Source: a virus (Duplodnaviria > Heunggongvirae > Uroviricota > Caudoviricetes). Taken from it: a stretch of 38,319 nucleotides of DNA. The stretch covers positions 1-38,319 of the IMG/VR virus record IMGVR_UViG_2897369580_000003, one strand, 5' to 3'. The notes under the pieces are model-generated. The model was not told where the DNA came from and did not search any database. It worked only from the letters and a program-made list of their open reading frames with translations. Position numbers and translations under genes: made by a program. Positions 1 to 11,696 of this stretch are shown here, piece after piece. The stretch's first letter is position 1; the number at the start of each line of letters is the position of its first letter.

Positions 1-90
1 TTGCCTCCCCCCCGTTGATGGGTAAAATAGCCGCAATTTTTCGTTTTCAACAAGCGCGGCGCGATGCCGCTTACTCAAGAAGAAAGAATT
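1..90 (+). promoter_or_regulatory. Host upstream region of prfC with a candidate sigma70 promoter (TTGCCT 1-6, 16-nt spacer, TAAAAT 23-28)
   Basis: Hexamers read directly; spacing counted by eye. Confidence 0.3.
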
Positions 91-165
91 ATGACGTTGT
101 CTCCTTATTTGCAAGAGGTGGCGAAGCGCCGCACTTTTGCCATTATTTCTCACCCCAATAATTAA
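91..165 (+). pseudogene. prfC: 5' fragment of prfC (release factor 3), first 22 codons, fused to phage DNA and terminated ([24 protein letters not shown])
   Basis: Translation matches the RF3 N-terminus up to ISHP as I recall it (native continues DAGKTT); the reading frame diverges at about 156 and stops at 163-165. Confidence 0.7.
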
Positions 166-7426: not shown

Positions 7427-8119
7427 TTAATTGTGTCGTTTAAGGGTTTGTGACTGGCTGATTAAGACCTTTCCAAAGACCATAAACCGGTGTTCATTTT
7501 CGCTGGTAATTCCCCATTCACGGTAAATCTGGTTATCAGAAATCACCAGTAGTTTGTCAGGTATCATTTGCAGTCGTTTGACATAAATTTTATCATCAAA
7601 ACCAAATACATAGATACCATCTCCATCAAACTGATTGATACTGACATCAACGAAGATGAGATCTCCTGGCTCAATGGTTGGACACATACTGTCCCCACGA
7701 ACGTTGATAACTTTAATGTGATTGGCTGGTCGTCCGCCAAACATCGATACAGCATTATCAGTTCTGTATTCAATGGCATGAATCACATCAATGACATCAC
7801 CGCCCTGGATAAGGCCATTTCCCGCACTGGCACTGACATCCAGCATTTCAATACGGAATACATCCTTCACCTGCGCAACATCCTCACTAATACTGTTTTT
7901 ACATACAGTATTACTTTTGACGTCTGAGGTAAAGAGATCAGCAATATCAACACCTAAGCTCCTGGCAATATTACTCAGGGCTTGTTCAGTGAATTGTTTC
8001 TGCTTACCTGTTTCCAGGCGCGAGATATTCGCCGCATCCACTCCTATTGCTTCAGCGAGATCGGCGATTTTCATGTTCTTCGCCTGGCGAAGTTGTCTGA
8101 CTCGGTTTCCTATGTTCAT
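7427..8119 (-). CDS. CI-like prophage repressor (N-terminal HTH, C-terminal S24 LexA-type peptidase domain)
   Basis: 230 aa; HTH near the N-terminus; C-terminal VRGDSM ... IYVKRL pattern of S24 autopeptidases; divergent from the Cro-like gene. Confidence 0.85.
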   Translation of the reverse strand: MNIGNRVRQLRQAKNMKIADLAEAIGVDAANISRLETGKQKQFTEQALSNIARSLGVDIADLFTSDVKSNTVCKNSISEDVAQVKDVFRIEMLDVSASAGNGLIQGGDVIDVIHAIEYRTDNAVSMFGGRPANHIKVINVRGDSMCPTIEPGDLIFVDVSINQFDGDGIYVFGFDDKIYVKRLQMIPDKLLVISDNQIYREWGITSENEHRFMVFGKVLISQSQTLKRHN

Positions 8120-8138: not shown

Positions 8139-8202
8139 ATTGCGCGTTAAGCAAATCAACTTGCGCAAAATATTTGCGTGAAATAATATGCTCATCACGC
8201 AA
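8139..8202. promoter_or_regulatory. Putative OR operators with PR/PRM: ATTGCgcgttaaGCAAA (8139-8155), palindrome TTGCGCAA (8161-8168), TTGCGTG...CACGCAA (8174-8202); candidate PR -35 TTGCGC / -10 TAATAT
   Basis: Dyad symmetries and hexamers read directly in the 97-bp divergent intergenic region. Confidence 0.5.
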
Positions 8203-8216
8203 TATGTGGAGGTTAT

Positions 8217-8477
8217 ATGCAATCACCATTACGAAATGTGCGTAAGGCGCACGGCTTTACTTTGCAGCATGTTGCTGCGGGCGTTCAGGTTAATCCAGCA
8301 ACGCTGAGTCGTATTGAGAGACTGGAACAAATTCCATCTATCGATCTTGCAGAGCGTTTGGCCAATTTTTTTAAGGGAGAAATCAGCGAAATGCAGATTC
8401 TCTATCCTGCACGCTTTCAATCTAGTCAAAACCGGAATGAGTTAAAACCACAGGAACAGGAGGTAAGCCGTGGGTAA
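8217..8477 (+). CDS. Cro-like HTH transcriptional regulator (YdaS-like)
   Basis: 86 aa; HTH (GFTLQHVAAGVQVNPATLSRIE); GGAGG RBS; divergent from the repressor. Confidence 0.75.
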   Translation: MQSPLRNVRKAHGFTLQHVAAGVQVNPATLSRIERLEQIPSIDLAERLANFFKGEISEMQILYPARFQSSQNRNELKPQEQEVSRG

Positions 8478-9021
8478 GCATCACTGGAAAGTGGAAAAAC
8501 AGCCTGAGTGGTACGTGAAAGCTGTCAGAAAAACTATCGCGGCGTTGCCGGGGGGTTACGCTGAAGCTGCTGAGTGGCTGGATGTAACAGAGAACGCTTT
8601 ATTCAACCGCCTTCGTGCCGATGGCGATCAGTTTTTTCCGTTGGGATGGGCAATGGTTTTACAGCGTGCGGCTGGTACTCACCACATTGCGGATGCTGTC
8701 GCACAGTCTGCTGGTGGGGTGTTTGTATCACTTCCAGAAATTGAGGAAGTAGAGAACGCTGATATCAACCAACGTCTACTGGAAGTTATTGAACAGATCG
8801 GGAGTTACTCAAAGCAGATTCGTTCGGCAATCGAAGACGGGGTAGTGGAGCCACATGAGCAGACAGCAATTAATGATGAGTTGTATCTGTCGATTTCGAA
8901 GCTCCAGGAACATGCGGCACTGGTCTACAAAATTTTCTGCGTTCCAGAAAAGAGTGACGCCCGCGAGTGTGCAGCTCCGGGCGTCGTGGCGTTTTGTGTC
9001 TGTGGAGAAACTAACGCATGA
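8470..9021 (+). CDS. YdaT-like (CII-like) early regulatory protein
   Basis: 183 aa immediately after the Cro-like gene with overlapping start; resembles the Rac racR-ydaS-ydaT arrangement by context and memory. Confidence 0.45.
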   Translation: MGKHHWKVEKQPEWYVKAVRKTIAALPGGYAEAAEWLDVTENALFNRLRADGDQFFPLGWAMVLQRAAGTHHIADAVAQSAGGVFVSLPEIEEVENADINQRLLEVIEQIGSYSKQIRSAIEDGVVEPHEQTAINDELYLSISKLQEHAALVYKIFCVPEKSDARECAAPGVVAFCVCGETNA

Positions 9022-9166
9022 ACAGTTTAACGGCAAATAACCGTTGGTCGCAACAGCTGGTGGTCCGCGTGGCTGAACACCTGTTGTTACGGCATGAATG
9101 CAGATTACCAAATCACCTGGCTGTAAGTAACCACAGAGAACTTTACCTGACTGTGGGGGGCGAGTT

Positions 9167-9346
9167 GTGCAGGAACTTAACCGCTGGTTTCGTGACGGAA
9201 GAGGACTTTATGTTCATGTTATTCGTTGGGAGCCAGAAACACAGCGCGTTATCTATCTTCGCAAAGACTACCCGCATGAGTGCTTTAGTCCTTTGTGGAA
9301 ATTCAGGCGTGATTTTGTTGAGTGTGAAGGACCACCAGCACATTGA
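9167..9346 (+). CDS. Possible small protein (59 aa, GTG start after GGGGGG RBS)
   Basis: ORF below the 60-aa track cutoff found by manual translation; no known motif. Confidence 0.25.
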   Translation: MQELNRWFRDGRGLYVHVIRWEPETQRVIYLRKDYPHECFSPLWKFRRDFVECEGPPAH

Positions 9347-9376
9347 TTCTGCCATTCCGGGACGTTACACTGTTCA

Positions 9377-9454
9377 GGCACCTTATAAAGCGGGTGCCGG
9401 GCGTGGAAACCCGGAATTCACCAAAGCGCACAACCGCGCTCTTGCGGTTTTTTT
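9377..9454 (+). terminator. Two adjacent stem-loops (GGCACC/GGTGCC 9377-9398; CCGGG/CCCGG 9397-9414) followed by an intrinsic terminator (AACCGC-gctctt-GCGGTT + T7, 9432-9454)
   Basis: Inverted repeats and T-tract read directly; lies in an ORF-poor stretch between the immunity-region genes and Rha. Confidence 0.5.
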
Positions 9455-9623
9455 GTGTCATGAGCAGCATTACGCCCAAATTATGGTGGGGCGTGCAGGG
9501 CCAACTTCGGTTGGGCCGGGTTCTTTGGTGACCGGTATTTCCACCCCTGTACGTCTCACCACCAATAAGGTCGTGGAAAGCCTTGGTGGTGAGTTATTTA
9601 AAATCACCAAAGAGGCTGCCATC

Positions 9624-10169
9624 ATGGCTACGATCCCAACCCTCACTCAACCTGAAATTGCCATCGTTGATGGTCAGGCTGTTACTTCATCCCTGGCTGT
9701 TGCCAACTTCTTCTCCAAACGTCATGACGATGTACTGAAAAAGATCCGCACGCTTGAATGCTCCGCATCATTCACTGCCCGCAATTTTTCGGTGAGTGAT
9801 TACACCGATTGCACAGGCCGCAAACTACCTTGCTATCAAATAACCCGCGACGGCTTTGCGTTTCTTGCTATGGGTTTCACGGGTAAACGTGCTGCCCAGT
9901 TCAAAGAGGCATACATCAATGCCTTTAACCAGATGGAGAAACAGCTTTCAAAGCCCGCTGTACCGAGCGACGTTGCACATAACGCCAGCGTTCTCTGTTC
10001 CTACATTTCATCAATTCATCAGGTCTGGCTGCAGCAGCTTTATCCTATGTTGGCAAAAGCCGAATCTCCGCTGGCTGTTAGCTTATATGACTATATTAAT
10101 GATGCTTCGGCGCTGGCCTGCCTCATAAATTTGTCGCTGAACCCTTCAGAGGTAAGGGGGCGCAAATGA
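9624..10169 (+). CDS. Rha-family phage regulatory protein
   Basis: Rha motif (AVTSSLAVANFFSKRHDDVLKKIRTL) near the N-terminus when started at the ATG at 9624 (AGAGG RBS); the long ORF 9018..10169 is likely an artefactual extension. Confidence 0.7.
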   Translation: MATIPTLTQPEIAIVDGQAVTSSLAVANFFSKRHDDVLKKIRTLECSASFTARNFSVSDYTDCTGRKLPCYQITRDGFAFLAMGFTGKRAAQFKEAYINAFNQMEKQLSKPAVPSDVAHNASVLCSYISSIHQVWLQQLYPMLAKAESPLAVSLYDYINDASALACLINLSLNPSEVRGRK

Positions 10170-10390
10170 TCCGGAATATTTTCAAACGTTTTACCAATCA
10201 GACTTTCCGTTGTCCTCGTCCGGGTCAGTGGTACACCACGCCTGCAGGGCATGTTCTACGTGTTAGCCTGGTTGACCGTGAATGTCAGAAGGTGGTTTGT
10301 GAACCGCTGGGCCGTAATTACCGCGTCAGTATGCCGCTTATAGCCTTTCGCTCCGGAAAAAACATGAAGCATCTCGGAGGTGCAGCATGA
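10166..10390 (+). CDS. Small hypothetical phage protein
   Basis: 74-aa ORF whose start overlaps the stop of Rha and whose stop overlaps the start of the replication gene. Confidence 0.45.
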   Translation: MIRNIFKRFTNQTFRCPRPGQWYTTPAGHVLRVSLVDRECQKVVCEPLGRNYRVSMPLIAFRSGKNMKHLGGAA

Positions 10391-11205
10391 GTATGGAGCT
10401 GATGGTTAAAGCGATGAAAATTCGAGTGGGTAATCCATTGCGAAAACTGGTTCTGATCAAGCTGGCTGATAATGCCAGTGATCAGGGTGAGTGCTGGCCC
10501 AGCTACCAGCATATTGCTGACCAGTGCGAGATTAGCAAACGTTCTGTGATGAATCATATTGCGGCCCTTTGTGAGTCCGGGCTGGTAAAAAAAGTCACCC
10601 GGAAAGGTGAAAAAGGTAACTCAAGTAATATCTATCTCCTTCATCTGGATGGTGCAGGAGATTCACTAGGGGGTAGTGCAAATAATTCACTATCTGGTGC
10701 AGCAAATTCACCAGGTAGTGCAGGAGTTGCACCAGGGGGTAGTGCAGGAGATTCACCCAGAACCAGTCACTCTTTTGAATCAGTCAAAGAACCAGTCAAT
10801 GAACCAATAGCTGTTGGTGAATCTGCTGATGAGTCTGTGCGAGTTCGTTCAAACCGACCGGAATACTCTCCGGAGTTTGAGCAGACATGGCTGGCATACC
10901 CCAAACGTGCTGGTGGCAATTCAAAATCTGCAGCCTTCAAAGCCTGGAAAGCCCGTTTGAATGAGGGAGTAAACCCCGAAACCATGCTGGAAGGTGTGAA
11001 ACGCTACGCGGGCTGGGTATCTGCGATGGGCAATAGCGGCACACAATTTGTGAAACAGGCTGTCACGTTCTTTGGTCCGGATCGTCATTTCGAAGAATCC
11101 TGGGAAGTTCCTGCGGTATCTGCAGCCAGACGTGAGGACCCGTACTTCAAATCCAGTTACGACAACGTGGACTACAGCCAGATCCCGGCAGGATTCAGGG
11201 GGTGA
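10387..11205 (+). CDS. Putative replication initiator (O-like; N-terminal winged-helix, Gly/Ser-rich linker)
   Basis: 272 aa; N-terminal LRKLVLIKLADNASDQGECWPSYQHIADQCEIS pattern typical of phage replication-initiation HTH domains; internal iteron array. Confidence 0.6.
   Translation: MSMELMVKAMKIRVGNPLRKLVLIKLADNASDQGECWPSYQHIADQCEISKRSVMNHIAALCESGLVKKVTRKGEKGNSSNIYLLHLDGAGDSLGGSANNSLSGAANSPGSAGVAPGGSAGDSPRTSHSFESVKEPVNEPIAVGESADESVRVRSNRPEYSPEFEQTWLAYPKRAGGNSKSAAFKAWKARLNEGVNPETMLEGVKRYAGWVSAMGNSGTQFVKQAVTFFGPDRHFEESWEVPAVSAARREDPYFKSSYDNVDYSQIPAGFRG
10649..10810. repeat. Iteron-like direct repeats inside the replication gene (about five roughly 21-bp units containing GGT(A/G)(G/C)TGCA...ATTCAC, then three AACCAGTCA units): candidate origin
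   Basis: Repeats read directly; an origin inside the linker-coding part of the initiator gene is the lambda O arrangement. Confidence 0.55.
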
Positions 11206-11696
11206 TCGTGAGTCTTTTGAATGAAGTTCAGAAATTCATTGAAGCCCATCCGGGGTGTACTTCCGGAGACATTGCGGATGCTTTTGCTGGTTACTCACGG
11301 CAGCGCGTTCTGCAGTCAGCAAGCAAGTTACGTCAGAGTGGGCGTGTGGCTCACCGTTGTGAAGGAGATACACGCAGACATTTCCCGCGCCTGACTGAGA
11401 GAGCGCAGGAGCCGGAACCACAATCTGTTCGTGAAACCAGACCTGTGCGCAATTTCTATGTCGGCACTAACGACCCCCGGGTGATTTTGTGCCTGATCCG
11501 CCAGGCTGAAGAACTGGAGTCCAGGGGCTTATTCCGTCGAGCTGCAACGGTGTGGATGGAGGCATTCCGTGAAAGCCACTCCCAGCCAGAACGAAACAAT
11601 TTTCTGGCGCATCGTGAGCGGTGCTTACGGAAAAGCAGCAAGCGCGCTGCATCGGGTGAAGAGTGGTATCTGTCAGGGAATTACGTGGGGGCTTAA
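11202..11696 (+). CDS. Hypothetical phage protein
   Basis: 164-aa ORF; start region overlaps the replication gene stop; stop overlaps the methyltransferase start (TAATG). Confidence 0.5.
   Translation: MIVSLLNEVQKFIEAHPGCTSGDIADAFAGYSRQRVLQSASKLRQSGRVAHRCEGDTRRHFPRLTERAQEPEPQSVRETRPVRNFYVGTNDPRVILCLIRQAEELESRGLFRRAATVWMEAFRESHSQPERNNFLAHRERCLRKSSKRAASGEEWYLSGNYVGA

Follow-up and report, generated by a model that had tools for sequence, protein, structure and literature searches.

An immI/isrK-type RNA module preceding a Rha-family antirepressor-like gene in an Escherichia coli lambdoid prophage

Small RNAs that govern antirepressor-like genes have been described in several temperate phages, and the closest counterparts of the locus studied here are the isrK-orf45(STnc1160)-anrP module of Salmonella Gifsy-1 and the immI operon of P1 and P7. 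In Gifsy-1, read-through past the IsrK terminator is partial and the resulting message is translationally silent (Hershko-Shalev et al., 2016; PMC4825925). IsrK supplied in trans activates this message by pairing with what is the C4 part in our locus, and raises AnrP translation ~140-fold and the read-through transcript ~8-fold (PMC4825925). Processing of the read-through transcript yields the RNA STnc1160; the authors weighed a CI-like role for it, and constitutive STnc1160 was unlike a termination factor (PMC4825925). Furthermore, orf45, which begins at the C4 AUG, was found experimentally to be translated and to be required for AnrP synthesis (PMC4825925). The same paper likens IsrK to seqA/CI of P4, and its text makes no mention of P1. 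In P1, C4 RNA pairs with the icd/ant message and blocks antirepressor synthesis, and differences in the boxes lead to the heteroimmunity of P1 and P7 (PMC8198154, PMC6906374, PMC12197685). For N15 and P4, the reported output is premature transcription termination and not masking of a ribosome site (PMC4825925).

The DNA analyzed here is the complete 38,319-nt IMG/VR record IMGVR_UViG_2897369580_000003, referred to as the window. It is an E. coli lambdoid prophage, and positions 8200-10400 are 100% identical to the chromosome of E. coli ATCC BAA-2469. A CI-like repressor gene with an S24 domain lies on the minus strand (7427-8119), and is followed by a Cro-like HTH gene (8217-8477) and a cII/YmfL-like gene (8470-9021). 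The stretch of interest, 9347-9623, is located between a DUF4222 gene and a Rha-family gene in the early right operon, upstream of the replication genes; 3' of the Rha gene are a small ORF, a DnaD/O-like replication gene, a PerC-like gene and Dam. From ymfL to the replication gene, this part of the operon is joined by 4-nt start/stop overlaps if an ORF starting at 9018 is counted. The DUF4222 gene (9167-9346, plus strand; Pfam DUF4222, E=9.5e-14; phrog_1343, E=1e-36) is a neighbor that lies outside the RNA module, with variable sites concentrated at third codon positions (17 vs. 5 and 6), and its stop codon TGA (9344-9346) falls within the -35 hexamer of the putative promoter described below.

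An Rfam cmscan of the whole window gave exactly two matches at or above the gathering score, both inside the 9347-9623 stretch, one to isrK and one to the C4 antisense RNA. At this site, the annotation of the identical E. coli ATCC BAA-2469 genome carries no RNA feature. On the grounds set out below, we consider it very probable that the stretch works as an RNA switch for secondary immunity, of the P1 immI/Gifsy-1 isrK type, placed in front of a Rha-family antirepressor-like gene. A previous sequence-only reading had described two adjacent hairpins, an intrinsic terminator and a TTCG hairpin at this place; all four structures were found within 1-2 nt of those positions in the sequence, the terminator scan and the folds, and chance is no plausible source of them. 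Its suggestion of a small regulatory RNA proved apt, as two known small RNAs, one IsrK-like and one C4-like, score above the Rfam gathering scores. It had overlooked that the TTCG hairpin is only one inner arm of an 88-nt RNA, and that short boxes are repeated across the stretch.

The IsrK-like small RNA, the a1b1 element of immI-type operons, occupies 9378-9454 on the plus strand (RF01394; 67.0 bits, gathering score 50, E=2e-12), with the full model, positions 1-77, matched. The complete isrK model consists of two 5' hairpins and a terminator, and the Rfam alignment and the minimum free energy (MFE) fold concur. Hairpin 1 (9378-9397) is closed by GCACCU/GGGUGC, and hairpin 2 (9398-9413, CGGG...CCCG) presents box a1. 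The Rho-independent terminator (9432-9454) has its stem at 9432-9449 and a U7 tract reaching ~9455, and is on the terminator-scan list. By itself, the IsrK fold is not unusually stable (z=-1.0). Covariation was counted on hairpins 1 and 2 only, because the MAFFT alignment loses the register of the terminator stems; compensatory changes were found in 6/7 pairs of hairpin 1, and 87.6% of the cells were paired among 37 distinct homologues.

A putative sigma-70 promoter for this RNA can be read at 9343-9371 on the plus strand (-35 TTGATT at 9343-9348, a 17-nt spacer and -10 TACACT at 9366-9371), which implies a start ~7 nt downstream, at ~9378. It matches the consensus at 8/12 positions only, and is therefore not on the list of the promoter scan. 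Across lambdoid relatives with differing upstream flanks, its nucleotides are almost invariant, and better hexamers stand at the same position in Gifsy-1 (TTGACA-17-TATATT), P7, N15 and others. It is thus position and conservation that point to this promoter.

The C4-type antisense RNA was found at 9479-9566 on the plus strand (RF01695; 83.6 bits, gathering score 45, E=3.5e-15). Its closing stem of 17 bp pairs 9484-9500 with 9545-9561 and encloses a UUCG hairpin (9501-9514) and a second hairpin (9515-9536), the loop of which bears b' CUUUGGUGA (9523-9531). The element a', UUUCCAC (9538-9544), lies in the single-stranded joint before the 3' strand of the closing stem. The MFE structure equals the Rfam consensus (-44.6 kcal/mol, z=-4.1). 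In 54 distinct homologues, 99.6% of the cells were paired and compensatory changes occurred at 16/27 pairs; 0/500 shuffles equaled this covariation, and slid controls dropped to 34-48% paired. The comparison of homologous regions proposed in the sequence-only reading thus backs the C4 fold as well as the IsrK hairpins. The closing stem is tRNA-like and conserved, with a 3' CACCACC; in the loci from IMG/VR, the invariance of the C4 ends is by construction, since the search pattern fixed AATTATGGTGG and CCACC. In P1, the C4-equivalent RNA is excised by RNase P.

The two RNAs and the leader of the Rha message are linked by short complementary boxes. Box a1, GUGGAAA, is located in hairpin 2 of IsrK (9403-9409) and recurs as box a2 in the Rha leader (9573-9579), where it is the exact complement of a'. 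Box b1, UCACCAAAG, lies at 9418-9426 in IsrK, only 5 nt upstream of the terminator stem. Its counterpart b2, UCACCAAAGAG, at 9604-9615, overlaps GAGG (9612-9615), the Shine-Dalgarno (SD) sequence of the Rha start at 9624, 8 nt before the ATG; all four boxes are on the plus strand. Specifically, GTGGAAA is found at 9403 and 9573, and TCACCAAAG at 9418 and 9604, with the complements in C4 at 9538 and 9523, respectively. In the entire 38-kb window, TCACCAAAG occurs only at these two positions and its complement only at 9523. The exact complementarity of a' and b' extends over 7 nt (a) and 9-11 nt (b). The b':b2 duplex of 11 nt spans 9604-9614, and would therefore cover GAG of the SD sequence. Predicted duplex energies are -18.7 kcal/mol for b':b2, -10.9 kcal/mol for a':a2, -17.7 kcal/mol for b':b1 and -15.3 kcal/mol for a':a1. 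The Rha leader itself (9567-9640) folds with z=-4.5.

A further complementarity connects GGUGGUGAG (9585-9593, plus strand) to the 3' strand of the C4 closing stem, CUCACCACC (9555-9563). Each occurs once in the window, and the two could form an alternative helix in the unprocessed read-through RNA. A GGUGGUG-like motif is present 3' of a2 in most loci. As the sequence varies little, covariation at GGUGGUGAG is weak; we dropped it as a third covarying pair because the motif barely varies and the pattern was mis-anchored at some loci.

A BLAST search of 9340-9640 against phage genomes returned 140 records, from which 11 diverse loci were taken (a Salmonella phage, Stx1/Stx2 phages, cdtI, phiP27, SfV, the P2-like P88, N15, P7 and a Yersinia phage). 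In all 11, a C4 match begins 24-35 nt after an isrK-type match; the P7 score of 43.7 bits for isrK is below the gathering score, and the c4-a1b1 model passes instead. Further loci were collected by a pattern scan of IMG/VR and, after removal of chance matches and one false positive (L035), 99 distinct loci remained. These loci are related to each other and comprise 23 a-box types, 40 b-box types and 56 combinations seen, with the three-way complementarities switching together. An exact complement of at least 7 nt was present for a1 in 91/99 loci, for a2 in 98/99, for b2 in 85/99 and for b1 in 63/99, the last number rising if G:U pairs are allowed. Among non-cognate box pairings, at least 7 nt of exact complement were reached in 3-5% (a2, 5%). 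In nearly all loci, b2 overlaps the SD sequence. The a and b boxes are exchangeable specificity cassettes, by which each prophage would control its own antirepressor only.

The Rha-family gene (9624-10169, plus strand) encodes a regulatory, antirepressor-like protein (Pfam Phage_pRha, E=5e-31, domain from residue 21) and is probably the regulated output of the module. Its codon-position variability of 0.87/0.70/1.17 shows the codon-3 excess of a real coding sequence. No icd-like small ORF is present between C4 and Rha (9566-9624), and the coding sequence that starts at ATG 9624 is that of the Rha-family protein itself. In the sequence-only reading, 9624 had been taken as the true Rha start. 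It stands as a regulated internal start, with a strong SD sequence, an overlapping b2 that covaries with C4, and a Rha domain beginning at residue 21. The PHROG matches of Rha include the anti-repressor families phrog_373 and phrog_63, as weaker matches, and these are common to Gifsy-1 AnrP. BLASTP of Rha against Gifsy-1 AnrP gave no detectable similarity; direct homology of the two proteins was therefore rejected, and remote PHROG families in common are the sole link. An antirepressor role of Rha is presumed; given the S24 autocleavage domain of the prophage repressor, the need for an antirepressor is not obvious.

By homology with P1/P7 and Gifsy-1, we infer the transcription start, the processing, the translational block, the decoy action and the antirepressor role of Rha as follows. 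The weak promoter at 9343-9371 would start transcription at ~9378, and most transcripts would end at the terminator (9432-9454), giving an IsrK-like RNA of ~77 nt that displays a1 and b1. Read-through transcripts would hold the 88-nt C4-type RNA (9479-9566). Its a' and b' would then pair with a2 (9573) and b2 (9604-9614) of the leader and mask the Rha SD sequence, which would keep Rha off in the lysogen. As the short IsrK bears the boxes of the target, it would compete for C4: where abundant, it would titrate C4 as a decoy and free the ribosome site. The balance between decoy and lock would depend on the terminator.

The output step could differ in the window, as the homologous RNAs of N15 and P4 are reported to act by transcription termination. 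The same RNAs might act mainly on transcription, with C4 pairing to a1/b1 or a2/b2 in the nascent transcript and causing premature termination at 9432-9454 or by Rho, and with the translational block being secondary; we regard this as unlikely. The N15 module consists of the same families in the same layout, and the position of b1 directly before the terminator stem would suit such an action. P1 C4 reportedly lowers ant transcription indirectly via Rho, a finding ascribed to Biere, Citron and Schuster in 1992. In Gifsy-1, IsrK in trans also raised the read-through transcript, and a CI-like role was considered for STnc1160 (PMC4825925). However, the location of b2 on the SD sequence in nearly all loci points to ribosome exclusion, and in Gifsy-1 the translational effect is far above the transcriptional one and constitutive STnc1160 is not termination-factor-like (PMC4825925). 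Termination-based output is possible as an added layer on the translational switch.

The stretch is also crossed by an open frame, and this needs to be interpreted with care. A frame in phase with Rha is open from 9018 to 9623 on the plus strand and runs through the promoter, IsrK, the terminator and C4; its ATG at 9018 overlaps the stop of the ymfL/cII-like gene (ATGA). Together with Rha it forms a 383-aa ORF (9018-10169), while PGAP gives 9276-10169 as one Rha family CDS. The translation of 9366-9620 matches Pfam PF10554 Phage_ASH with 47.1 bits (gathering score 26), PHROG profiles include the extension, and a 2022 paper takes IsrK to be a descendant of an ASH protein domain (PMC8825220). 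Accordingly, the stretch might simply be protein-coding, an N-terminal "Ash" domain fused to Rha, with the hairpins being incidental. Several results make this very improbable. In 9378-9623, there is no codon-3 excess; the variability is flat (0.62/0.67/0.58), in contrast to the pattern of Rha, and follows RNA pairing and cassette exchange instead. The codon-3 excess in 9167-9346 is that of DUF4222 and does not reflect the 383-aa frame. Translations of the RNA region that are broken by stops match the Ash HMM too, in N15 (52 bits, 3 stops) and in a Yersinia phage (53 bits, 1 stop), and the translation of the P88 RNA region is above threshold as well (27 bits). Furthermore, the Rha frame is interrupted, depending on the cassette, in the P1/P7, N15, P2-like and Gifsy-1-like groups, whereas the RNA features are retained. 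A promoter and an intrinsic terminator would lie inside the supposed domain, and its homologues are experimentally RNAs. A purely coding "Ash" domain was rejected because of the codon-position statistics and the stop-containing matches.

Nevertheless, the frame is kept open in lambdoid relatives. In the 300 nt upstream of the Rha ATG, the Rha frame contained a single stop occurrence in 45 distinct lambdoid relatives (44/45 stop-free), whereas in the other two frames of the same relatives, stops occurred 231 and 144 times, at 34 and 31 variable positions, respectively. The distance from the C4 start to the Rha ATG is 142 or 145 nt throughout the lambdoid group, always in phase. ATGA-type starts recur, either with the ATG 54 nt (81 nt in one locus) upstream of the IsrK start or 354-360 nt upstream of it, as for 9018 in the window. 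The window AUG at 9483, counterpart of the Gifsy-1 C4 AUG, is in frame with Rha. The upstream ORF had been dismissed as an artefact in the sequence-only reading. This holds insofar as no amino-acid-level constraint was found across the RNAs; it does not fit the stop-free frame of the ~45 lambdoid relatives, the ATG overlapping the upstream stop, or the Gifsy-1 equivalent, an ORF from the C4 AUG that is translated experimentally (PMC4825925). The 383-aa ORF is therefore neither a plain artefact nor amino-acid-constrained across the RNAs, and the 9018-9623 frame is probably read by ribosomes on PR-derived mRNA while specifying no constrained protein domain.

Translation through the module would thus matter, while the peptide would not. 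We propose that on PR-derived mRNA, ribosomes coupled from the upstream gene traverse the module in the Rha frame. This would hinder folding of the internal terminator and make the C4 lock ineffective; in the lysogen, IsrK and C4 would come from internal-promoter transcripts that are not translated. Taken further, and tentatively, the Pfam PF10554 "ASH domain" may be the conceptual translation of the IsrK-C4 RNA module and not a protein domain; in lambdoid prophages, it would have been built into a coupled ORF constrained only to stay open, with ribosomes overriding the terminator and the C4 lock after induction and untranslated internal-promoter transcripts keeping the lock in the lysogen. 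We see this as possible rather than likely. If true, a single sequence would serve as promoter, two small RNAs, terminator and "spacer" coding frame, with translation as the override.

The two hairpins and the terminator had also been likened to a nut/put-type antitermination site for early-operon transcription, which is hardly credible: the location in the early right operon upstream of the replication genes and the resemblance of the terminator loop CGCTCTT to a boxA core would suit it, but the isrK and C4 models account for the hairpins completely, the boxA-like string is not shared by relatives, which differ in terminator sequence, and no lambda nut or HK022 put Rfam match was obtained in 8900-9900 at E up to 10. 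In P1, N15 and P2-like phages, the module heads operons in which antitermination is not at issue. What is conserved is neither boxA/boxB nor a fold like that of put, but the antisense match of C4 to the Rha ribosome site, which an antitermination site would leave unexplained.

The module or a relative of it was found in 2012 of the 5426 complete E. coli genomes, and a single genome holds as many as 6 copies. Among the rows listed, these copies are labeled as Rha-family CDS, as "ash family protein" CDS, or are unannotated; the annotation of E. coli copies ought to include two ncRNA features together with an internal start for Rha. The a/b cassettes amount to a large repertoire of private "keys", with which co-resident prophages would control their antirepressors independently, and cross-talk between cassettes could couple or uncouple the induction of Stx and other prophages. 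The stop-free yet unconstrained frame offers a concrete, testable case of translation overriding an RNA-based lock.

Overall, the stretch is of an already known kind. It consists of curated RNA families with a mechanism characterized in close relatives, so its novelty is low, and the residual interest lies in the mis-annotation of the module and in the stop-free unconstrained frame. Among the known systems, the sar RNA/ant pair of P22 is alike in that a small antisense RNA prevents antirepressor translation in a temperate phage. However, sar is not related to these RNAs: it is a genuine cis-antisense transcript of the opposite strand, and the system has neither a/b box duplication nor a decoy RNA. 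N15 immA (CA RNA) carries IsrK-like and C4 family RNAs in the layout of the window, upstream of icd/ant genes; in N15, as in P4 (CI RNA with seqA/seqC), a small RNA processed from the leader pairs with repeats on either side. The reported output there is termination, whereas ribosome-site masking is proposed for the window.

P1/P7 immI (a1b1 - c4 - a2b2 - icd - ant1/2; Citron and Schuster, 1990; PMC8198154) has the C4 family in common with the window (69.6 bits in P7, 83.6 bits in the window). In both, C4 has a copy of the a/b targets on either side, b2 coincides with the ribosome site of the gene that comes first downstream, and the boxes set specificity, seen as heteroimmunity in P1/P7. In contrast, the window is without an icd gene and its regulated protein comes from a different family. 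The a1b1 element of P7 is below the isrK gathering score (43.7 bits) and passes c4-a1b1, and P1, a plasmid prophage, has an operator under C1 control upstream.

The Gifsy-1 isrK-orf45(STnc1160)-anrP module was aligned directly with the window. The box sequences differ, the downstream protein of the window is of the Rha family and not AnrP, and the module of the window lies inside the early right operon, whereas that of Gifsy-1 follows the Q gene. Moreover, the ORF that begins at the C4 AUG continues in frame into Rha in the window, with the frame open far upstream, while its Gifsy-1 counterpart ends on the start codon. The order of the parts is nevertheless identical: a promoter, IsrK with two hairpins and a terminator, a 24-nt gap, a C4-type RNA, a2/b2 on the SD sequence, and an antirepressor-like gene. 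In both, an ORF starts with an AUG at the 5' end of C4 and box a1 of IsrK pairs with the C4 part, the mutational pairs G28/C162 and G31/C159 of Hershko-Shalev et al. (2016) corresponding to a1:a'; by homology, the partial read-through of the terminator would be common to both as well.

The early right operon of the window (8470-11696) is chained through overlapping stop and start codons if ORF383, the 383-aa open frame (9018-10169) that runs through the IsrK-C4 RNA module in phase with Rha, is included. The overlaps are ATGA at 9018 between ymfL and ORF383, ATGA at 10166 between Rha and orf74, ATGA at 10387 between orf74 and the O-like gene, and GTGA at 11202 between the O-like and PerC-like genes. 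If ORF383 is left out, two gaps appear in this chain. Among the related loci, complete modules, each combining IsrK and C4 with a short Rha-like ORF, were also found as tandem arrays of two or three: in L032 (4675 and 5334), L033 (3663 and 4319), L051 (three copies with a 656-nt period), L099, L118 and L125. Within these arrays the TGA ending each long ORF shares nucleotides with the following module's ATG, and the a/b cassette differs from module to module.

When conceptually translated, the IsrK-C4 region matched Pfam PF10554 (Phage_ASH) in the window (9366-9620), N15 (L010, 1470-1730), a Yersinia phage (L012, 1155-1415) and P88 (L009, 1190-1460). Some of the matching translations contain in-frame stop codons, and such regions are labeled "ash family protein" in RefSeq. 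At least in part, PF10554 looks like an artefact of translated RNA. Separately, the locus from the Yersinia phage gave, at its edge (1-135, minus strand), a partial, sub-threshold match to Rfam ryfA (70.9 bits; gathering threshold 80) that is unrelated to the module.

CUCACCACC (9555-9563), the 3' side of the stem that closes C4, and GGUGGUGAG (9585-9593), which lies shortly after box a2 in the Rha leader, are mutually complementary, and a motif resembling the latter was found after a2 in most loci. Pairing between the two segments could give an alternative helix, opening C4 and making its AUG accessible in RNA that has not been processed. The window leader (9567-9640) folds by itself (z = -4.5), with b2 and the SD buried.

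The a1 and a2 boxes of the window (GUGGAAA, 9403-9409 and 9573-9579) are the reverse complement of the P88-type boxes (UUUCCAC in P88, L058 and L088); therefore, pairing could occur between the window IsrK and leader and the targets belonging to a P88-type module in the same host. The two types of C4 RNA could likewise pair with one another, and such pairing is a possible form of cross-talk between prophages.

In Salmonella phage 118970_sal3 (L002, 884-1207), the DUF4222 frame is shifted by a 1-nt insertion relative to the close relative L130, so that the 107-aa "putative antirepressor" annotated there is chimeric, joining two different frames; the shift is either a sequencing error or the mark of a pseudogene. 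In the window, the putative IsrK promoter has TTGATT as its -35 hexamer, and the DUF4222 stop codon TGA (9344-9346) lies within it. Similarly, in the isrK-orf45-anrP locus of the Salmonella prophage Gifsy-1 the stop codon of the upstream gene, there Q, is located at the -35 element, which it abuts.
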